The translations under genes were made by a program, and so were the position numbers. A stretch of 64,000 bases of DNA from an uncultured Methanosarcinales archaeon (GTDB taxonomy: Archaea; Nanobdellota; Nanobdellia; Woesearchaeales; JAGVZT01), in the NCBI GenBank assembly GCA_964354685.1, contig CAYHAM010000002.1:71058-135057 (forward strand), written 5' to 3'. This document shows, piece by piece, positions 3,376-59,650 of the stretch (its first letter is position 1; the number at the start of each line of letters is the position of its first letter). The notes below the pieces were generated by a model. The model was not told the DNA's origin and searched no databases. It saw nothing but the letters and a program-made list of their open reading frames with translations.

Positions 3376-5406
3376 ATGAAGATACTCTTCTATGCCATAA
3401 ACGGGGTGGGTTTAGGCCATGTGAACAGAACCCTAGCAATAGCCAAAGAGATAAGAAAACTAAGCCCAAAAGCCCATATAATGTTTGTCACCAATTCTCA
3501 ATTTCCTGATTTAATTGAAAAAGCTAACTTCCCTTACATAAAGCTGCCAATCTTTGAAGGAGACCCTCTTACAAAGGATATGACAAGATACATACCTTAT
3601 TTAGTAAATGAAAAGCTGATAGAAGCAACCTTGTATGACTATGAGCCAGATGCTGTTGTTTATGACACCCATTTTCCATTTGGAACTGTTAAAAAAGCAA
3701 GTGAATTCAATGTTAAAAACATACTAATACTTAGAAAGCTGAAAAACAAGGTTCTTGATGATTACATAAAACAGTTTAAGCATTTTGATCTAATAGTCTT
3801 GGCCCACTCTGAACAAGAGTTTTTAGATATGAAAGTTTCAAAACAATTAATACAAAAGATAAAGAATAAAGGCATTGTGTTTGTTGGTCCAATCATAAGA
3901 AAACCAGAAAATATAGAACCAAATTACAACTTAAACAAATTTAACATCCTTGTAACAGCTGGTGGAGGAGGTTGGAATGATTCCAAGAAGTTTGTTGAAA
4001 TTTGTCTAAAAGTTTGCAAAAAAATTGTTAATAAAAACAAAAACATCAATTGCTACATCATAACAGGCCCTTTATACAGATGGAATATTAATCATATCAA
4101 AAATAACAACATTATAATCAAAAGCTTTGAACCCAAACTGATAGATCTAATGCAAAAATGTGATTTGGTTGTTTCTCAAGCAGGGTATAATGTATGCAAT
4201 GAAATCATGCTAACAAAAACACCAGCAATAATTATCTCAAGAAAAGACCCACTTGAAGACCAAAGAGAAAGGGCAAAATGGCTTTCAGAAAAAGGTGTTG
4301 CAATAACAATCAACACCTTAAATGAAAAAACATTAACAGAAGCTATTGAAAAGTTTTACCAAAATAAAGTTCTACAAACAAAGATGAAGAGAGCATTTTC
4401 TAATATTAAACTTGATATAGGTAATGAAAGATTATCAAAGATGATAATAAATTTGATACCAAAAAGAATAGAAAAACAGGTGAAGCTTTCAAGAAAAAAA
4501 CATAAACTCCTGGATTCAAAATATAGGCAAACCCAACAAATAGAAAAAAACCAAACAAATCTGTTGGAAGAAAAAGGCATACAGGAACAATGGGATACTC
4601 TACTAAAAAAAGAAACAAACCTTAGACAAAAACAAGGCGATATCTATTCCAAATTAGAACCATTATATAAAAAAATAAGAGAGTTAAAAAAACAAACACC
4701 ACAACAAGAATACATTAAACAACTCAATCCATTAGAAAAACAAAAACAACAACTCTTAAAACAAAACAAAAAACTAGAAGAACAAACTAAAAAACTAAAA
4801 GAACAAAACAAAACACTAAAAAACAAAGAGCCCTTTAAAACACTACTAGAACTACAAAAAGAACTCGATCAAAAATATGAAGAACTCTTTGAGCCATACA
4901 ACATCCAGATTGGAGAAGTAATACAGAAACAAGAGCTTGTTCTTGAGGGAAAATACACTGAAAAGACTTGGAATGCACTTGAAAAACAAAAACAAAGTTT
5001 GGAATCAGAAAAACACCAATTCTGGCAAAAAGAGTTAAAACCAATAGAAGACAAAGTTAACCTATCCAAAGCCAAAGTTAAAACATACACTAAAGAACAT
5101 GGCATCTTAGATATTAAAGAGATTGACAAAGATATTGAATCTCTATGGCAAGAAATCAACAAAAACAACAAAGAGCTACAACTTATAGACAACGACATAG
5201 AAAATCTCAACAAAGAAACTAATAAAATCCAAAAATTAGTTGACAAAAAATACAACAAACAACTCCTTCCTCTAGATTACAAGCTAGACAAAATACTCAA
5301 CGAAAAACAAGACTTCCTAAAAAAGCACAAACTATTTAAAGATTTCAAAAGACTGGACAAGGAAAGGGAAAGATTAAATAAAGAGATTTCAGAGCTGCAG
5401 GATTAA
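3376..5406 (+). CDS. UDP-glycosyltransferase (GT1/GT28 MurG/MGT-like N-terminal domain) fused to a ~300-aa K/E/Q-rich coiled-coil tail
   Basis: MKILFYAINGVGLGHVNRTLAIAKEI... (G-rich loop + GHVN), LVTAGGGGW, SQAGYNVCNEI; C-terminal half is low-complexity coiled coil (QKQQLLKQNKKLEEQTKKLKEQNK...). Stop at 5406, next ATG at 5408. Confidence 0.7.
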   Translation: MKILFYAINGVGLGHVNRTLAIAKEIRKLSPKAHIMFVTNSQFPDLIEKANFPYIKLPIFEGDPLTKDMTRYIPYLVNEKLIEATLYDYEPDAVVYDTHFPFGTVKKASEFNVKNILILRKLKNKVLDDYIKQFKHFDLIVLAHSEQEFLDMKVSKQLIQKIKNKGIVFVGPIIRKPENIEPNYNLNKFNILVTAGGGGWNDSKKFVEICLKVCKKIVNKNKNINCYIITGPLYRWNINHIKNNNIIIKSFEPKLIDLMQKCDLVVSQAGYNVCNEIMLTKTPAIIISRKDPLEDQRERAKWLSEKGVAITINTLNEKTLTEAIEKFYQNKVLQTKMKRAFSNIKLDIGNERLSKMIINLIPKRIEKQVKLSRKKHKLLDSKYRQTQQIEKNQTNLLEEKGIQEQWDTLLKKETNLRQKQGDIYSKLEPLYKKIRELKKQTPQQEYIKQLNPLEKQKQQLLKQNKKLEEQTKKLKEQNKTLKNKEPFKTLLELQKELDQKYEELFEPYNIQIGEVIQKQELVLEGKYTEKTWNALEKQKQSLESEKHQFWQKELKPIEDKVNLSKAKVKTYTKEHGILDIKEIDKDIESLWQEINKNNKELQLIDNDIENLNKETNKIQKLVDKKYNKQLLPLDYKLDKILNEKQDFLKKHKLFKDFKRLDKERERLNKEISELQD

Positions 5407-6841: not shown

Positions 6842-7431
6842 AAGCATACTTAATACCACTTTTAACATATATCCTAACCCCCTTAATATTAAATTTCTTT
6901 ATTAAAAATATTTATATCTCGTATTTTGTTGGTATTATTCTGACAGGAATTCTGCTTTTTTATTTCAGAAAACACTACAAAATAAAATTAAGAATAAAAC
7001 TCTTACCTTTTGTTATTGGAATTATCATTTTCCTTGTTTGGATATTTATCCCAAATATTTATCCTTTTTTCATTAGCACACAATTTGTTCCAACAAACAC
7101 TTCTTTTTTATTATTCAAATTGCTTGCAATGATAAGTGTTGTTCCCTTGACAGAAGAGCTCTTTACTCGTGGTTTCTTGATAAGATACTTTGCTACAAAA
7201 GATTGGAAAAAGGTTCAAATAGGCAAGTTTACCTGGCTTTCCTTTATTATTACAGTTCTGTTCTTTGGCTTTTCTCACAACAGGTGGTTATCAGGACTAA
7301 TTGTAGGAGTATTACTCAATCTTTTGTTATATAAAACAAAGAATTTGGGAGATTGTATTATTGCTCATAGCTTTGCAAACCTGTTGGTAGGAGTCTATGT
7401 TATATACACAAACTCTTGGTTTTTGTGGTGA
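6838..7431 (+). CDS. CPBP-family (CAAX/Abi, PF02517-type) intramembrane metalloprotease
   Basis: Motifs TEELFTRGF (EExxxR), FGFSHN (FxxxH) and IAHSFANL (second His) in a 6-TM protein; start overlaps archaeosortase stop by 4 nt. Confidence 0.8.
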   Translation: MKAYLIPLLTYILTPLILNFFIKNIYISYFVGIILTGILLFYFRKHYKIKLRIKLLPFVIGIIIFLVWIFIPNIYPFFISTQFVPTNTSFLLFKLLAMISVVPLTEELFTRGFLIRYFATKDWKKVQIGKFTWLSFIITVLFFGFSHNRWLSGLIVGVLLNLLLYKTKNLGDCIIAHSFANLLVGVYVIYTNSWFLW

Positions 7432-7488
7432 TTTATCACTCTAAAATCCTCAAAAACTAATTTAAACTACTTATATTTAAACAGTAAT

Positions 7489-8406
7489 ATGGGGGTTAGT
7501 ACAGAGCTAAAAGAGTGGGTTAACAAGGGATTAAAAAAAGGCTACTCAAAGGACAAGCTTAGACAGGAGCTTACAAAGGCAGGTTATTCTGATAAGGACA
7601 TAACTTCTGCTTTAAAGGAAACAGGATCTAGCCCAAAGCGTAATCCTCTAGTTATTGGTATTGTTTTGATTGCAGTTATTATTGGATCTATTTACTTGTT
7701 TAATGCATTGCAGACAAAGGTCATTGTTCTTGAGGCTGAAAAGGACTTTAATTTGGGAGAGTGGGTGAGGGTAGAGCCGGAAGGCGACTATGTTGTTATA
7801 AACAACGAGACTGAAATTTGGAGTAGACCTTTCAACCTAAAAAAACTTTCCAATTTTCGCGAAGCACAAAAAATAAATGTCAGGGTTATTGCCAAAGGCG
7901 GTGAGGGGGAGGAGGAAAACCTGATTCTCATTTTAGAGGTTGTTAATCAGAGCCATTATGGAAATTTTGAGAACTCAACAATTTATCCTTCAATAGTCAC
8001 TGTCATTTCAGACGTAAGCGGCAATAAGACAATAGAGACCCGCTTCTCTGGCAAATATTTGAACGGAGTGATGAATGACAAATTGGTTCAGAAAAAAGGC
8101 ACTTTTGATACGTCCAACGCAGTCTTTATGAATAGCAGATTCCAAGATATGGTTATCGAGGGCAACAAAACAATCTTTTATTACAGAAAGGATAAATGGC
8201 CTGTGCTTTCTGTTGTCTTTGGAGAGGACCTCAACAACTGGAAGTTGCTGGAGATATCCTCAACAGAGTGGCAAAGTTTTCTGATTCAGTTTGACATGAA
8301 TAGGTTTTCAGACTTTGAAAATGCGGAATTAATATTCGAGTTAAGCACAGACACTTTAAACCCTATACCTACATACATTGATAAAGTTTATGTCACTTTA
8401 GAATAA
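7489..8406 (+). CDS. N-terminally anchored membrane/surface protein, paralog A (short cytoplasmic N-domain, one TM, ~230-aa external domain)
   Basis: MGVSTELKEWVNKGLKKGYSKDKLRQELTKAGYSDKDITSALKETGSSPKRNPLVIGIVLIAVIIGSIYLF...; first ~80 codons nearly identical at DNA level to 8756.. paralog. Confidence 0.6.
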   Translation: MGVSTELKEWVNKGLKKGYSKDKLRQELTKAGYSDKDITSALKETGSSPKRNPLVIGIVLIAVIIGSIYLFNALQTKVIVLEAEKDFNLGEWVRVEPEGDYVVINNETEIWSRPFNLKKLSNFREAQKINVRVIAKGGEGEEENLILILEVVNQSHYGNFENSTIYPSIVTVISDVSGNKTIETRFSGKYLNGVMNDKLVQKKGTFDTSNAVFMNSRFQDMVIEGNKTIFYYRKDKWPVLSVVFGEDLNNWKLLEISSTEWQSFLIQFDMNRFSDFENAELIFELSTDTLNPIPTYIDKVYVTLE

Positions 8407-8420
8407 ATTTCAAGTAAATA

Positions 8421-8648
8421 CTATCTCAATTTTTTCTTTATTATTATAGACAAACAGATGACGGCTAAAAGTGCTAAGACAGACGTGGCACCAGAAAATT
8501 CTGGTACGCAGTTACAACTCGCGTCGCAAACTTTTGTACCTGGGCAACCGCCGTCACACCCATTGCCTGCAAAACACGCCCCGAAAGCAACCGAAGAACT
8601 AAGTAGGATGAGAACAAACATGGTTAAAACCAAGGCACCTCTTTTCAT
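8421..8648 (-). CDS. Tiny secreted Cys-rich protein with PEF-CTERM-like sorting signal (putative archaeosortase substrate)
   Basis: MKRGALVLTMFVLILLSSSVAFGA (signal peptide) + CFAGNGCDGGCPGTKVCDASCNC (7 Cys in 23 aa) + VPEFSG + ATSVLALLAVICLSIII (TM) + KKKLR. Confidence 0.7.
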   Translation of the reverse strand: MKRGALVLTMFVLILLSSSVAFGACFAGNGCDGGCPGTKVCDASCNCVPEFSGATSVLALLAVICLSIIIKKKLR

Positions 8649-8755
8649 CTTAACAATTCTTTATAGATTTCTAATATATAAAGTTTTTGTTTTTCTGTTT
8701 TATTATTCACAAATAGTCAAAAACTAATTTAAACTACTTATATTTAAGCAGTAAT

Positions 8756-9685
8756 ATGGGGGTTAGCAAAGAGCTAAAAGAGTGGGTTAACAAGGGATTA
8801 AAAAAAGGTTACTCAAAGGACAAGCTTAGGCAGGAGCTTACAAAGGTAGGTTATTCTGATAAGGACATAACTTCTGCTTTAAAGGAAACAGGATCTAGCC
8901 CAAAGCGTAATCCTCTAGTTATTGGTATTGTTTTGATTGCAGTTATTATTGGATCTATTTACTTGTTTAATGCATTGCAGACAAAGGGAATTGTGCTAGA
9001 GGCAGAGAAAGATTTTAAGTCTGGTGACTTTGGTGTGGAGTTCGAGCCCTTTACTGATTACATCAGACTCAGCAGTAATGGCTATATCACAACCGAATCT
9101 CTGAATCTTAAGGAACTTAAAAACTTTGAAAAAGCAGACAAGATCAATGTTGAATTTATTGCCAGAGGAGAAACAGGCAAGGCAGAAAACATAGTCTACA
9201 CATACGAGCTTCTTGATGGTGAGACATTTGACAATTTGGAGGATTCAATGAATTACTCAACCAGGATAACTTTGCTCTGTGATATAACTTGTGACAAGAC
9301 TCTTGAGAAAAGCCTGAGCGGACAATGGCTGAACAGAGTCATGAATGAGAGACTTAACCAGGAAGAAGACACATTTGACCAGGGTGAAATCTTTGTTTCA
9401 CACGCCAAGTTCAAGGACATAACTGTTGAAGGGAACAAAATGGTTATACGATATGAGAGGAGTATCTGGCCTGTTGTTTATGTATCAACCTGGTCCACAG
9501 AATGCTTCTCCTGCAAAAAGCCTGCTGCGGTGGAAATATCTTCACAGGAATGGGAAACCTACACTGTACAGTTTGATTTGGCTGACCCGAAATCAGATTA
9601 TTCCTACCTGGGTATAGAATTGTCAACTGATGAAGAAAACCCAAAGCCGGTCTACATAGACCAAGTAATTGTCAGCTTAAAATAA
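8756..9685 (+). CDS. N-terminally anchored membrane/surface protein, paralog B
   Basis: Same N-terminal 80 aa as paralog A; diverged C-terminal domain with 4 Cys (CDITCDKT...STECFSCKKP). Confidence 0.6.
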   Translation: MGVSKELKEWVNKGLKKGYSKDKLRQELTKVGYSDKDITSALKETGSSPKRNPLVIGIVLIAVIIGSIYLFNALQTKGIVLEAEKDFKSGDFGVEFEPFTDYIRLSSNGYITTESLNLKELKNFEKADKINVEFIARGETGKAENIVYTYELLDGETFDNLEDSMNYSTRITLLCDITCDKTLEKSLSGQWLNRVMNERLNQEEDTFDQGEIFVSHAKFKDITVEGNKMVIRYERSIWPVVYVSTWSTECFSCKKPAAVEISSQEWETYTVQFDLADPKSDYSYLGIELSTDEENPKPVYIDQVIVSLK

Positions 9686-13309: not shown

Positions 13310-14317
13310 TTATATAAATCTTTCTATGAGTGTTCTTAGAAAAACAAAGAGGTTACCTTGGCACACAATGGTTATCAAAACGCCCATAAATATAATCACA
13401 GCAAAAGGCAATGTTTCATGGATAATTACCCTTTTATCCTCTTTTATAATCTTTTTTATTTTATTAGGTGTAAGTGTAACTAGACCTTCCTTTGTCTGCA
13501 TAGCCATTCCAGGCTCAAGGTCTTTCGCATTCACTCTTCTTGTAAGAACCATGTCTCCAAACTCTTTTAAAACAATTATGCCAAGCAATATCACAAATAT
13601 AGCGACAAAATCCTTCCAAAAGCCTATTGTAAAAACATTACTGTAATCAAAAATCAGCCTAAACAATGAAAAGAGTAAACCGATTTTCAACTTGTCCCAA
13701 CCAAACCTTTCGATCACATAAAAAAGCAGAAAAATTGCAATTATACTTATAAAAAAATAGTTTGGAATTTTAATCAATGCAAGCAAGTTTCTAACCAACC
13801 AAGAAAACCCAAAAACCAGGAGAACTAGACCAATTAATGCCTTTGTTTCAAAAGCCTTCCTAAAACAATCTTTCTTCTGCTTTGTATTTGATTTTAACAA
13901 AACATAAAAAGCATAATAAACAAAAACAGGTGTAAATGTATTTATAAGAATAACAAAAGAAGGAAAATAATCAATATTCCCAAATTGATAAATTGACAAT
14001 GGAACAAGAGCTGAGAATGCAATAAACAGCTTTGCATCTGCAGGGCTCCAAAGATTCAACTCAAAAAATAAATATCCAAGCAATATGGCAAACAGAATAT
14101 TTGTAAAAAGAGTTGTATAATAAATAGGGTTTGGCAAAAGCCCAAGATAATTACCCAATAAAAACCTTATCAAGATTATTATCAAAGAAACAACTATTGC
14201 TGAAAAAACCCACTTGTTTCTTATCTTGCTAAACTTTATATCTTCATAAGTTGTTATTGCACCAAGCAATACAACAAAAATTATTGACAAAGCATCTACC
14301 ACCCATAGCATAAGCAA
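13310..14317 (-). CDS. Archaeal type IV prepilin/preflagellin peptidase (A24 family, PibD/FlaK/EppA-like) with extra C-terminal region
   Basis: Polytopic membrane protein with first catalytic Asp region TTYEDIKFSKIRNKW and second Asp motif NLWSPADAKLFIAF (G/A-x-GDxKL-like). Confidence 0.65.
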   Translation of the reverse strand: MLMLWVVDALSIIFVVLLGAITTYEDIKFSKIRNKWVFSAIVVSLIIILIRFLLGNYLGLLPNPIYYTTLFTNILFAILLGYLFFELNLWSPADAKLFIAFSALVPLSIYQFGNIDYFPSFVILINTFTPVFVYYAFYVLLKSNTKQKKDCFRKAFETKALIGLVLLVFGFSWLVRNLLALIKIPNYFFISIIAIFLLFYVIERFGWDKLKIGLLFSLFRLIFDYSNVFTIGFWKDFVAIFVILLGIIVLKEFGDMVLTRRVNAKDLEPGMAMQTKEGLVTLTPNKIKKIIKEDKRVIIHETLPFAVIIFMGVLITIVCQGNLFVFLRTLIERFI

Positions 14318-14382: not shown

Positions 14383-14650
14383 TAAACACTCGCGAGGTTG
14401 CTACAAATTATTAAAATTTTATTACTAAAAATAACCTTCGCGGGGTTGCTTGTTATAACCTCATTATACGCAACCCCGTGGTGATAGGGTTCCTATCCTC
14501 TTCAGGAAGCAAGGAACCTCAGATAAGTACACGCTTGATATGTCAGAATACCAGAGGTATTCTGAGCATGATCAAAAACAATCTTTGTTGTTTTTGACAT
14601 AAGCAAGAGATATATCACTCGTGAATTATTTTAAAATTAAAAAGAAGATT
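14383..14650 (+). repeat. Copy 1 of a conserved structured intergenic element (hairpin gcggggttgc/gcaaccccgt + 50-nt conserved core + ACTCGTGAATT tail)
   Basis: Core gttcctat..ctcttcaggaagcaaggaacctcagataagtacacgcttgatatg is ~90% identical to 23607-23660; 3' end atcactcgtgaattattttaaaatt matches 23727-23750. Confidence 0.6.
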
Positions 14651-14687
14651 GTTATTGAAAATATTAATAAAGTAGAATTATAAAACA

Positions 14688-23511: not shown

Positions 23512-23562
23512 AGAGATGTTTAATTGGTTGCTCTTTATAAATATTATTTATATTATTATAAC

Positions 23563-23750
23563 TAGCGAGTTGCCAGTGCTTAACCGCAAGAAAGGCAACT
23601 CGTTGTGTTTTTGTTCCTATATTCTCAAGGAAACAAGGAACCTCAGATAATTACACGCTTGATAGAGGCATGTGGAAAATCACTCGCTAAAGAATTTTAA
23701 TTTTAAATAATTATTATGCAACTCGTGAATTGTTTCAAATTTTTTAAAAA
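23563..23750 (+). repeat. Copy 2 of the conserved structured intergenic element (hairpin cgagttgcc/ggcaactcg + conserved core + ACTCGTGAATT tail)
   Basis: ttcctatattctcaaggaaacaaggaacctcagataattacacgcttgataga and gcaactcgtgaattgtttcaaat match copy 1. Confidence 0.6.
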
Positions 23751-23802
23751 ACATAGTATTTAGAATAAACTATTTAAACAAAACCAAATTAACACAGCAC
23801 AT

Positions 23803-23875
23803 AGCCCCGTGGTCTAGTGGTCAAGGATAACCGGCTCTGGACCGGTTGGCGGCAGTTCGAATCTGCCCGGGGCTA
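23803..23875 (+). tRNA. tRNA-Gln (anticodon CUG)
   Basis: Acceptor AGCCCCG/CGGGGCU, D-arm GUCU..GGAU, anticodon stem ACCGG/CCGGU with loop CUCUGGA, T-arm GGCAG-UUCGAAU-CUGCC, discriminator A; no encoded CCA. Confidence 0.8.
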
Positions 23876-23886
23876 TCTTTTAATGT

Positions 23887-26336: not shown

Positions 26337-26911
26337 TTTTGCAAAATACCTTTAACTACACTCTTGTGCTTTTTATTGAACTCCTTTGCTAAGATATCCA
26401 TATAAATATCATTCATAAACTTCCCTGCAATAAGCCTTGCTTCTCTCCTCATCCCAATTTTCCTAAAACCAACCTTTTCATAAACCCTTTGTGCCCTTTT
26501 GTTCTCCTCATAAACCCAAAGCACTATACTGTTCAAACTTAACACATTAAAACCATAATCTAACATCAAGGTTACTGCCTCTGTTCCATAACCCTTGTTC
26601 CAATATCTCTTATCCATTATTGCTATTCCAAACTCTGCTGTTCTATTTATATGATTGATATTATGCAACCCAGTGTTCCCTATCAGCTTCTCTGTTTTCA
26701 GCTCAATAATAGAGAAAACCAAATCATCCTTTTTCTTCCTATGCTCCTCATACCACTCTACCTCATCCTCATATCTTATGTTTCTTGTAAATAAGACTAA
26801 GAACTGAGTTACCTCTAAATCATTAACCCATTTGTAAAAGTTTTTTATATCTCTCTTTTCCAATACAGCTAATCCAACCCTTCTTCCCTTGAGTTTAAAC
26901 ACACGTGTCAT
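26333..26911 (-). CDS. GNAT-family N-acetyltransferase (RimJ/RimL-like); start taken at MTRVFKLKG (26911) rather than track start 26986
   Basis: GNTGLHNINHINRTAEFGIAIMDKRYWNKGYGTEAV..VYEKVGF acetyl-CoA binding pattern. Confidence 0.7.
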   Translation of the reverse strand: MTRVFKLKGRRVGLAVLEKRDIKNFYKWVNDLEVTQFLVLFTRNIRYEDEVEWYEEHRKKKDDLVFSIIELKTEKLIGNTGLHNINHINRTAEFGIAIMDKRYWNKGYGTEAVTLMLDYGFNVLSLNSIVLWVYEENKRAQRVYEKVGFRKIGMRREARLIAGKFMNDIYMDILAKEFNKKHKSVVKGILQK

Positions 26912-26916
26912 TTTAC

Positions 26917-58081: not shown

Positions 58082-59293
58082 TTATTTTTGATATGATTTA
58101 CTAGGGAGATTACTCCCTCCTAAACCAAGAGACCATAAAGGCGAAAGTGTTTGAACATGAGCCTGTGGCTCAAATTGATCTCCTAAGTTATGTTTCAGAT
58201 CTATCCTTCTTCCATTTAGGTAAGATTGGGCTCCTTCATTACCAATACAAGCTCCTAAAACTCTCCTCCTATTACCTTTAGAAACAGAGTAAGCTGACAA
58301 AGTTCTCAAATCTGGGAATCTTATACCATAGCTCCTTGCACCATTAACAAAAAGTTTTGCACCCTCAATTTCTCCATCCAAACCAACAAATGATGCGCCA
58401 TCCTTTCGTGCTATAACAGTTTCTAATTCCATGATATCATCTATAGTAGCATCTATTAGATTTGGTGTTTTACCTTTATAATAATCCTCAACTGGGTTGC
58501 CATCCAATGGTGTTGTTAATATGTCTTTTAATCTCTTATCTCCAACAACAATTAACAACTTACCATCATATTTATTTGCAAACTCCTCTGTACTCTCAAT
58601 AACCTTTGCAGCCAACCCTTCTGGAACAGGACTGTAACGTCCATAATTCAATCCATCAAAGCTGGGTATAACAGGCAACTCTGGCCTGTAGGCAAAAATA
58701 GGCAATTCTGCTCTTTCCACAAATTGTTTTTTATTAAGCTCTTCCCCTTTAACTAAGCCATCAACCGTCTCAATATCTTGTGTGGTTGTGTAAACTCTCC
58801 CATTAACATAGAATGTAAGTCTGTCCTTTTCTTTACTCAAAACCCCAATCATACCATTTGTCAAATGAGACCAGAAAGCAGTTGTGGTGCCTCTTGCATT
58901 GTTGTCTAGGATATATTGTACTCCAGGCAAACCTCTGTGAACACTTTCTATAGCAACACCTTCTTTAATTAAAATTCCATTAGGACTAAATATAAATGCA
59001 CCTTTTTTCTGGCTGATGCTATTAAGGTAATCTCCTACATTATAATCACCATTTCCTCTCAAAGCAGGTAATGATTCAAAATGACTAAAATTCCTCATTC
59101 CTTCAAGATCAGCTTCAAATCCACCCATCTCTTTTCGGTCACACAAACCACCTATTAAGCCAGCATGCTTACCATCTGTGTGATTTTTCTTCATTAGATC
59201 CAACATACTACTATATAGGAAGAAACCTATTTCAGGATCAAACCTTTTACCACCCTTTCTGATCTGATTTTGTTTTCTCATTTTAAAAACCAT
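58082..59293 (-). CDS. Hypothetical protein in the glycogen cluster (possible carbohydrate-active enzyme)
   Basis: 403-aa ORF between debranching enzyme and GalT-like gene; no recognised motifs. Confidence 0.4.
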   Translation of the reverse strand: MVFKMRKQNQIRKGGKRFDPEIGFFLYSSMLDLMKKNHTDGKHAGLIGGLCDRKEMGGFEADLEGMRNFSHFESLPALRGNGDYNVGDYLNSISQKKGAFIFSPNGILIKEGVAIESVHRGLPGVQYILDNNARGTTTAFWSHLTNGMIGVLSKEKDRLTFYVNGRVYTTTQDIETVDGLVKGEELNKKQFVERAELPIFAYRPELPVIPSFDGLNYGRYSPVPEGLAAKVIESTEEFANKYDGKLLIVVGDKRLKDILTTPLDGNPVEDYYKGKTPNLIDATIDDIMELETVIARKDGASFVGLDGEIEGAKLFVNGARSYGIRFPDLRTLSAYSVSKGNRRRVLGACIGNEGAQSYLNGRRIDLKHNLGDQFEPQAHVQTLSPLWSLGLGGSNLPSKSYQK

Positions 59294-59562
59294 ATTTTTT
59301 AAGAGAAAGGAGTTTTAGCCTCCTTTTTTCAAAAGCATAGCTAATTTTGTGTTTTATTTCTAAATTCTAATTATCTATTCTCCTTTTTCTTATAGAGAAA
59401 CTCTTTTTCTTTCTTTTCTTTGGAGGAGAGCATCTCTAATTACTAGTTAAAGAGTATTTTAATTATATAAATCTTTCTATTTTCTATAAAGAATCCATTA
59501 AATAGCCTTCTTTTGCTTAAAATAAGCCTATAATAACCTTTTTGTCAAAGAAAAAGTAGCAC

Positions 59563-59650
59563 CACGAGTTGCCTTTTATGTGATTGAACACTGGCAACTC
59601 GCTAATTATTATTTTAATAATTTTATATATGTTATAGCAACTCGCGAGTA
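59563..59650 (+). repeat. Copy 3 (short form) of the hairpin element family (cgagttgcc-N19-ggcaactcg, then gcaactcgcgag)
   Basis: Same hairpin arms as copy 2 at 23568-23611; lacks the 50-nt core. Confidence 0.5.

Follow-up and report, generated by a model that had tools for sequence, protein, structure and literature searches.

The window, a stretch of 64,000 nucleotides with a GC content of 35.5% and AT-rich intergenic regions, contains three copies (copies 1, 2 and 3, or w1, w2 and w3) of one small non-coding repeat family with inverted-repeat ends. The host is a Woesearchaeote, a member of the DPANN archaea, and its nearest Bud32 is that of Ca. Woesearchaeota RBG_13_36_6 at 95% identity. 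There is about an even chance that these sites are copies of a non-autonomous MITE-like DNA repeat, new and lineage-restricted, whose target-site duplications are not discernible in the AT-rich flanks. Apart from internal hairpins that are kept by selection, the element is of a fairly ordinary kind. DPANN genomes are small and are considered streamlined. To our knowledge, repeat elements have hardly been described in these archaea, and the literature on non-coding RNAs or MITEs of DPANN archaea and Woesearchaeota yielded nothing relevant. A dispersed, rearranging repeat would show that such genomes still host mobile or recombining DNA. It would also offer a handle on strain-level variation, and the core would represent a new archaeal RNA family if it proves to be a transcribed RNA.

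The sites had been singled out in an earlier note as a family of conserved structured intergenic elements. The core, hairpins and tail that it ascribed to copies 1 and 2 were borne out, but the orientation and short form of copy 3, the shared position beside genes and the extent of the elements were not. The core of approximately 50 nt common to copies 1 and 2 is upheld by exact comparison, with 83% identity across 64 nt in a pairwise alignment of 14477-14540 and 23601-23664. The 30-mer AAGGAACCTCAGATAANTACACGCTTGATA occurs in the window only at 14511 and 23635, with an expectation of 0. The motif GCAACTCG occurs seven times against 0.33 expected, and six of the seven occurrences lie inside copies 2 and 3. 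The shared core, the unique 30-mer and the excess of GCAACTCG show that the repeat is real and exclude a chance match. The gttgc/gcaac hairpin, the ggttcc/ggaacc hairpin within the core and the 3′ tail ACTCGTGAATT are all present as had been described, as is the tRNA-Gln beside copy 2 (Table 1).

A copy of the element measures approximately 170-260 bp. It begins with an AT-rich left end, followed by the hairpin H1, the linker TGGTGAT, the hairpin H2, a single-stranded AAYAGAYAA, the hairpin H3 and a variable linker. The 3′ part consists of ATCAC, which pairs with the GGTGAT linker, the inverted left-end motif and an AT-rich right end. H1 has a 10-bp stem, in which the left-end motif pairs with an inverted copy of itself located internally, and a loop of 19-23 nt that carries GTGYYYAAY. 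H2 is composed of GTTCC..GGAAC with an inner 4-bp stem and a CTTAAGG loop, and H3 reads Y-A-C-N-[CGCT]-K-G-(A)-T-R with a bulged A. The family end motifs are CGAGTTGCC and ACTCAGGTCGCC, and two classes of ends are distinguished: class A, CGAGT(TGCC)...ACTCG, and class B, ACTCAG...CTGAGT.

In this genome, the end motif recurs some 30-38 nt outward as an outer repeat, seen as ACTCGCGAGGTTGC in copy 1, as GCAACTCGTGAATT in copy 2 and as the reverse complement of the ACTCGCGAGGTTGC motif in copy 3. The limits first set for the three copies were too narrow, since the AT-rich inverted flanks and these outer repeats belong to the element. The two-part left end of copy 1 is also found in copy 3 on the minus strand. 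By direct reading of the sequence, the ends of copy 2 mirror each other, with (G/A)GTTGC, 29-33 nt of AT-rich DNA and AGCGAGT on both sides. Both extra hairpins of copy 1 begin with TCA and end with TGA; the first is unique in the window, and a partial copy of the second arm is located at 14645-14658.

Table 1. Positions of the parts of the three copies and of the tRNA-Gln genes (window coordinates unless another locus is named)
Feature	Positions	Strand	Composition or remark
Copy 1, outer left repeat ACTCGCGAGGTTGC	14388-14401	+	duplicate of H1 5′ arm
Copy 1, AT-rich spacer	14402-14439	+	38 nt
Copy 1, H1 GCGGGGTTGC / GCAACCCCGT	14440-14479	+	20-nt loop
Copy 1, conserved core	14480-14540	+	linker GGTGAT, H2, single-stranded TCAGATAAG, H3
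Copy 1, H2	14488-93 / 14513-18	+	GGTTCC / GGAACC, inner TCCT/AGGA
Copy 1, H3	14528-14540	+	TACA-CGCT-TG(A)TA
Copy 1, extra hairpins after H3	14543-14598	+	without counterpart in any other member
Copy 1, first extra hairpin	14543-14565	+	TCAGAATACC-aga-GGTATTCTGA, perfect 10-bp stem
Copy 1, second extra hairpin	14572-14598	+	TCAAAAACAA..GTTGTTTTTGA
Copy 1, right end	14614-14640	+	ATCAC, ACTCGTGA (inverted left-end motif), AT-rich tail AATTATTTTAAAATT
Copy 2, composite left end	23526-23574	+	GGTTGC (23526-31), AT-rich spacer, AGCGAGTTGCC (23564-74, H1 5′ arm)
Copy 2, H1 GCGAGTTGCC / GGCAACTCGT	23565-23603	+	19-nt loop AGTGCTTAACCGCAAGAAA
Copy 2, conserved core	23604-23664	+	linker TGTGTTTTT, H2, single-stranded CTCAGATAAT, H3 (23652-64)
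Copy 2, H2	23613-18 / 23636-41	+	GTTCCT / AGGAAC
Copy 2, composite right end	23676-23745	+	AAAATCAC, inner repeat ACTCGCT (23682-88), AT-rich spacer
Copy 2, right end continued	23718-31 (outer repeat)	+	outer repeat GCAACTCGTGAATT, then tail GTTTCAAATTTTTT
Copy 3, whole	59470-59649	-	inverted and decayed
Copy 3, outer left repeat ACTCGCGAGTTGC	59649-59637	-	then AT-rich spacer
Copy 3, H1	59602-59593 / 59573-59565	-	5′ arm / 3′ arm
Copy 3, linker TGGTGCTACT	59564-59555	-	
Copy 3, H2	59556-59537	-	AT-rich remnant; H3 unrecognisable
tRNA-Gln beside copy 2	23802-23877		without T-loop insertion
tRNA-Gln with T-loop insertion, L001	~3085-2985	-	
tRNA-Gln with T-loop insertion, L002	~1165-1065	-	
tRNA-Gln with T-loop insertion, L003	~262-165	-	
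tRNA-Gln with T-loop insertion, L004		-	

Copy 3 had been taken for a short form in the same orientation as the other two. It is instead a decayed full-length copy, and it lies on the minus strand. By our own count from the sequences, its hairpin loop has 13/19 identities to the family loop on the minus strand versus 4/19 on the plus strand. The minus strand also gives the best covariance-model match of the region (59485-59568, 13.4 bits) and an exact CTCGTGGTGCT, and it is the only strand on which the left flank matches the family. From 59612 to 59470, the minus strand reads AAAATAATAATTA, followed by GCGAGTTGCC-AGTGTTCAATCACATAAAA-GGCAACTCG-TGGTGCTACT. The linker is identical to that of the member L003.

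The earlier note had proposed a search for the core in relatives, and six further members were found in relatives and metagenomes: L002 (two copies), L003/L004, L007, L011 and L014. The covariance model R1 finds eight full members at 84-112 bits, namely copies 1 and 2, L019, L002, L003, L004, L011 and L014, where L019 is an identical strain. Copy 1 scores 84 bits (14475-14634) and copy 2 scores 103.6 bits (23599-23700). Weak or decayed members are the second copy of L002 (L002-2) at 24 bits, L007, which is cut by a contig end, at 23 bits and copy 3 at 13 bits. An orthologous element is located between Bud32 and tRNA-Gln in L002 and L003/L004, which are contigs with close Bud32 homologues. L001 has a run of N at this site, and in the closest relative, RBG_13_36_6, a run of N stands exactly at the element site, an instance of how such elements break assemblies.

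The members L014 and L011 were recovered from metagenomes with a degenerate pattern that fits all known members; two GTDB matches of the same pattern are gammaproteobacterial chance matches. The exact 22-mer core pattern has no match in public genome or metagenome collections, and more distant Woesearchaeota loci, about 50 kb in total, contain no copy. A viral origin was rejected, as 79/79 viral-contig matches to a loose pattern failed the covariance model. It appears that the family is confined to a narrow clade of Woesearchaeota.

The neighbours differ among the copies and include Bud32/tRNA-Gln, the peptidase, rpS2, a DUF4190 gene and convergent gene ends. All three window copies had been placed immediately upstream of a minus-strand gene start. 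This is correct for copy 1 (~71 nt) and copy 2 (~52 nt) but not for copy 3 (~270 nt), and the position is not a trait of the family, as L014 sits between two convergent gene ends. L011 lies upstream of rpS2 in the same direction, and the copy in L007, a divergent member of the family, adjoins the DUF4190 gene. The second copy of L002, on the same 7.9-kb contig as the first, has lost H3.

The TATA box of Bud32, TTTATAAA (23534-41), is palindromic and lies 22 nt from the ATG, inside the AT-rich left end of copy 2. Equivalents occur in L003, L002 and L007, where the TATA box stands 22-24 nt away from the start ATG of the divergent gene, which is the DUF4190 gene in L007 and Bud32 in the others. 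Leaderless mRNAs are implied by this spacing. The element therefore not only abuts promoters but contains a TATA box at the Bud32 site, and it may supply or share the Bud32 promoter.

These contexts bear on the proposal that the copies are a shared cis-regulatory 5′ leader or riboswitch of the adjacent minus-strand genes. Such a leader would suit copies 1 and 2, at 52-71 nt from minus-strand start codons, but it is contradicted by the variable gene contexts and orientations and is very improbable. The neighbouring genes are unrelated, the orientation to them may be divergent, co-directional or convergent, and the orthologous peptidase locus in L020 is without the element. Moreover, the leaderless Bud32 ATG is separated from the element by the TATA box, which places the element upstream of the promoter and outside the mRNA.

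Among the three options raised in the earlier note, which also included an sRNA family, the MITE-like one is the best supported, on the strength of its terminal inverted repeats, a change of end class at one locus, an orthologous site without the element, and copies that are rearranged or decayed. The inverted ends were assessed as anchored complementarity over 20 nt. L014 has 16/20 (permutation p<0.0002) and L003 has 14/20 (p=0.0014), with 9-13/20 in the other members (p 0.009-0.04), such that all eight end pairs have p<0.04. In L014, the inverted arms extend over 34 nt at 74%. These ends lie in AT-rich flanks, and they could just as well represent an RNA closing helix, which would look alike; the outer “helix” extends far into AT-rich DNA.

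The empty site is found in L020, where orthologues of the genes flanking copy 1 (65% and 55% amino-acid identity to the window genes) are ~52 nt apart versus 376 nt in the window, although at 65% amino-acid identity L020 is too diverged to define the insertion junction. At the Bud32 site, the element is of class A in the window and of class B in L002 and L003, and L002 carries class A elsewhere on its 7.9-kb contig. Individual copies are also rearranged: in copy 1 the left end is duplicated and two hairpins have been inserted, and in copy 2 the right end is duplicated; copy 3 is decayed and L002-2 is without H3. The family has several of the features by which MITEs are recognised: it is small (<~600 bp) and non-coding, it has terminal inverted repeats, its copies are dispersed (three in the 64-kb window and two in the 7.9-kb L002 contig), and it is polymorphic for presence and absence.

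No transposase, integrase or reverse-transcriptase Pfam domains are present in the ~48 ORFs of the window or in the called genes of related loci. Likewise, the window ORFs and related loci gave no autonomous IS partner that combines the same inverted repeats with a transposase. With neither a transposase nor a resolvable target-site duplication, the case for a MITE is built on inverted ends, polymorphism and modular decay. All pairwise identities between members are 69-80%, whether within the same or between different genomes. Since the copies are roughly equidistant at ~75% identity, there has been no recent burst. Counted against the MITE reading is the greater conservation of the interior relative to the ends, the reverse of what a typical MITE shows.

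This conservation was followed through the covariation check suggested in the earlier note. Paired columns keep pairing through compensatory changes among six members, in which 86.4% of the cells are paired versus 38-51% with the 3′ partners slid. Seven pairs have changed on both sides. For the percentage paired, the number of double-change cells and the covariation score, the observed values were reached by at most 2 of 500 shuffles. In H3, A-U is replaced by C-G at columns 57-62, and U-A, C-G and U-G are all found at columns 54-66. In H2, C-G is replaced by U-A. The H1 stems are wholly different among members yet always pair, as seen in CGAGTTGCC/GGCAACTCG, GCGGGGTTGC/GCAACCCCGT, CAGG-TC-GCCTG/CAGGC-T-CCTG and GCTGG/CCAGC. 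The covariation of H1 is argued by inspection, outside the counted model, because MAFFT could not bring the two classes into register in the arms of this hairpin. The invariant columns are concentrated in H2 and H3, and the linkers and promoter-side flanks are essentially randomised. Pairing of the H2 loop with the H3 region in a pseudoknot was rejected in the absence of covariation, as CTTAAGG faces both CTTGAT and CTGGAT types.

The orthologous copies of L002 and L003 are 79% identical, whereas in the short interval from the Bud32 ATG to its TATA box only about half of the positions agree by eye. The compensatory pairs, the block-wise conservation and this orthologue identity indicate that the resident copies are under purifying selection. 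The conservation of orthologous copies points to a function at the host level or in cis, as opposed to purely selfish DNA. With compensatory changes and invariant blocks amid saturated flanks, the core is evidently used, probably as RNA, and a fold of a single strand is what the alignment most simply suggests.

The same data are the ground for the main rival, a family of paralogous genes for small structured RNAs of ~130-150 nt with their own AT-rich promoters and oligo-T terminators, which would act in trans. This live alternative is considered less probable than the MITE-like reading. The inverted ends would here form a closing helix P1, and, equally tentatively, H1-H3 with the invariant AAYAGAYAA would present a binding surface for a protein or an RNA target. 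Compensatory changes in all helices agree with such genes, as do the retention of the H2 loop CTTAAGG, the H3 CGCT loop and the bulged A across genomes while the linkers are saturated. The folding z-scores are -3.3 for copy 2 and -6.2 for copy 1. The L014 copy, between convergent genes, cannot be a leader, and the orthologous copies at the Bud32 site are retained in L002 and L003/L004. G-U pairs also exceed A-C pairs on the plus strand (15 versus 6), but as a strand signal this is weak and partly circular, the structure having been deduced from the plus strand itself. TATA-like boxes precede H1 by 20-35 nt and the right end is followed by T-runs, but both are uninformative in DNA of 35% GC with AT-rich intergenic regions.

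However, the inverted repeats reach 30-50 nt into AT-rich DNA and, with the outer repeats, extend further than a transcript initiated at an internal promoter could. With the conserved T-rich box at -23, transcription would begin inside the H1 5′ arm. Essential genes would also account less well than a repeat element for the decayed copies (copy 3 and L002-2), the duplicated ends, the vacant L020 site and the class switch at one locus. The sRNA family explains the conservation better than a MITE does, but it is the weaker explanation of the long inverted ends in AT-rich DNA, of the outer repeats and of the decayed copies. The earlier sRNA option therefore stands in so far as the hairpins are selected, but it is not the leading reading.

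A module that acts at the DNA level was also considered. The palindromic ACTCGCGAGT, along with CGAGTTGCC-N19-GGCAACTCG and GTTCC..GGAAC, would in that case be transcription-factor sites, or the element would be a bidirectional terminator or insulator. The motif ACTCGCGAGT is a perfect 10-bp palindrome at 59640-49 and matches in 9/10 positions at 14388-97, the motif is strongly over-represented, and T-runs on both strands flank the GC-richer core. A TATA box 22-24 nt from a leaderless start codon adjoins copy 2, L003, L002-1 (the first L002 copy) and L007, but L014 is without an adjacent promoter. The motif also differs by class within one genome (L002), with CGAGT versus CTCAG and GTTCC versus GTTTC or GCTTT. 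As only complementarity is kept between the classes, base-pairing is indicated and not a fixed protein site. A model of protein-binding sites alone is thereby contradicted, and the DNA-level module is improbable.

Database searches gave no established identity for the element. The Rfam search recommended in the earlier note found no family that matches the copies: at gathering thresholds the window contains two tRNAs only, and at E<=10 copy 1, copy 2 and L014 return only chance-level noise. A 5S rRNA, the product of a single essential gene with a three-way junction of helix II-III and helix IV-V arms, was considered on the resemblance of GGAACCUCAGAUAAGUAC to loop C/helix III. It was rejected, as there is no RF00001 match at E<=10, the topology is wrong with the motif 3′ of the second hairpin, and the element is multi-copy, decaying and absent at an orthologous site. 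C/D-box and H/ACA sRNAs were rejected because the box-like GTGATAG and CTGA are not conserved across members; the internal loop of H2 is also too small for a pseudouridylation pocket. ORFs of 39 and 31 aa span the cores, but a small protein was dismissed: the shared frame meets TAA, in the CTTAAGG loop, in L014 and L003, and the element is thus non-coding. A template or variable repeat of a diversity-generating retroelement does not apply, as the differences between copies are not adenine-specific and there is no reverse transcriptase. A bulge-helix-bulge splice site at the closing helix is contradicted by continuous helices. An IS200/IS605-derived palindrome-associated element (PATE), which would have similar subterminal hairpins at its two ends and lack inverted repeats, was rejected too, since the element has a single H1-type hairpin at the left, one arm at the right end, and inverted repeats.

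The MITE-like reading can be compared with known systems. The ERIC/IRU sequences of enterobacteria are reportedly imperfect palindromic intergenic repeats of 127 bp. They resemble the Woesearchaeon element in being small, non-coding and found only between genes, with inverted-repeat ends, discrete internal indels and no known transposase partner. In both, the sequence is conserved across species while positions differ, which suggests constraint at the RNA level. The Woesearchaeon element differs in having an archaeal host, three hairpins instead of one palindrome and two end classes, and there is no sequence relationship. The Correia elements (CREE/NEMIS) of Neisseria and the BOX/RUP elements of S. 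pneumoniae are similarly MITE-like, modular, hairpin-forming and promoter-adjacent, with modules gained and lost, and they can fold as RNA and serve as a source of promoter or terminator signals. Clear TA duplications and inverted repeats of 26 bp characterise the Correia elements, and BOX is composed of A, B and C modules. These hosts are bacterial, however, and TA duplications and defined modules are not evident in the Woesearchaeon element. Closer by host are the archaeal MITEs of Sulfolobus (SM1-SM4), Haloquadratum and Methanocaldococcus, which are likewise non-autonomous, bounded by inverted repeats, 100-350 bp in length and intergenic. Those match the inverted repeats of identified IS elements in their own genomes and have target duplications, whereas no parent IS was found for the Woesearchaeon element, which is most conserved in its interior and not at its ends.

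For a MITE-like element of this kind, the following course is proposed. A trans-encoded transposase or recombinase would recognise the reiterated end motif, and the element would be moved or copied into AT-rich intergenic DNA, often right beside promoters. Recombination between repeated ACTCG motifs could then reshape the resident copies: ends would be duplicated, internal parts deleted and the class at one locus changed. The H2/H3 core would be retained by purifying selection after insertion. Its use would most probably be as a folded RNA, produced when transcription enters the element by read-through or starts in its own AT-rich end.

The 3′ arm of H1, GGCAACUCG, has the sequence of the right-end motif and is the complement of the left end. 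A bolder version of the proposal, which is a long shot, would make the selectively maintained H1-H2-H3 core a new DPANN-specific functional RNA carried on a mobile cassette bounded by inverted repeats. In its boldest form, this RNA would pair with the ends of its own element and help a trans-encoded recombinase to recognise or join them, as omega or bridge RNAs do; this form is offered by analogy. The omega RNAs of TnpB/IscB and the bridge RNA of IS110 are also conserved, structured, non-coding segments inside a mobile element, with an internal segment that, like the 3′ arm of H1, complements one element end and repeats the sequence of the other. The differences are that no TnpB, IscB or IS110 recombinase gene is nearby and that there is no Rfam match. 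In addition, IS110 elements are without inverted repeats and omega RNAs lie at one end beside the nuclease gene, unlike the arrangement in the Woesearchaeon element.

Further observations were made on the neighbouring genes and on the rest of the window. The gene at 13310-14317 (-) beside copy 1, called a prepilin peptidase, has no Pfam match at E<=0.01, and its distant homologues carry PF06819 and PF01478; the name is owed to remote relatives only. The 403-aa gene at 58082-59293 (-) beside copy 3 lies in a glycogen cluster (glycogen synthase, GalT-like, amylo-1,6-glucosidase) and has no Pfam match. Its sole homologue among 5.8 billion proteins, at E<=1e-30, is itself.

The tRNA-Gln(CUG) orthologues of four relatives contain an insertion of 27-28 nt inside the T-loop, between GTTCGAA and TCTGCC, with ATAGAAATCAAATTGGTTTCCAAGAAA as the inserted sequence. 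The insertion looks like a non-canonical intron near position 59/60. ARAGORN finds no tRNA at these loci, so such tRNA genes would escape routine annotation.

Between the genes for CysRS and a PALP enzyme, 580 nt (26337-26916) contain no ATG-initiated ORF of at least 70 aa in an ORF scan. The region resembles a coding sequence on the minus strand, probably a gene that starts with a codon other than ATG. A 21-nt tandem repeat (AAAAAACTAAAAGAACAAAAC-like, at least 3 units) is located at 4747-4826, within a 676-aa ORF with a glycosyltransferase domain (3376-5406). Finally, 300 nt at 7420-7719 and 8687-8986 are 94% identical and fall within tandem paralogous genes (ORFs 7489-8406 and 8756-9685; 305 and 309 aa, no Pfam match), with a further 50-nt repeat at 8614/9897, which suggests recent duplication or gene conversion.
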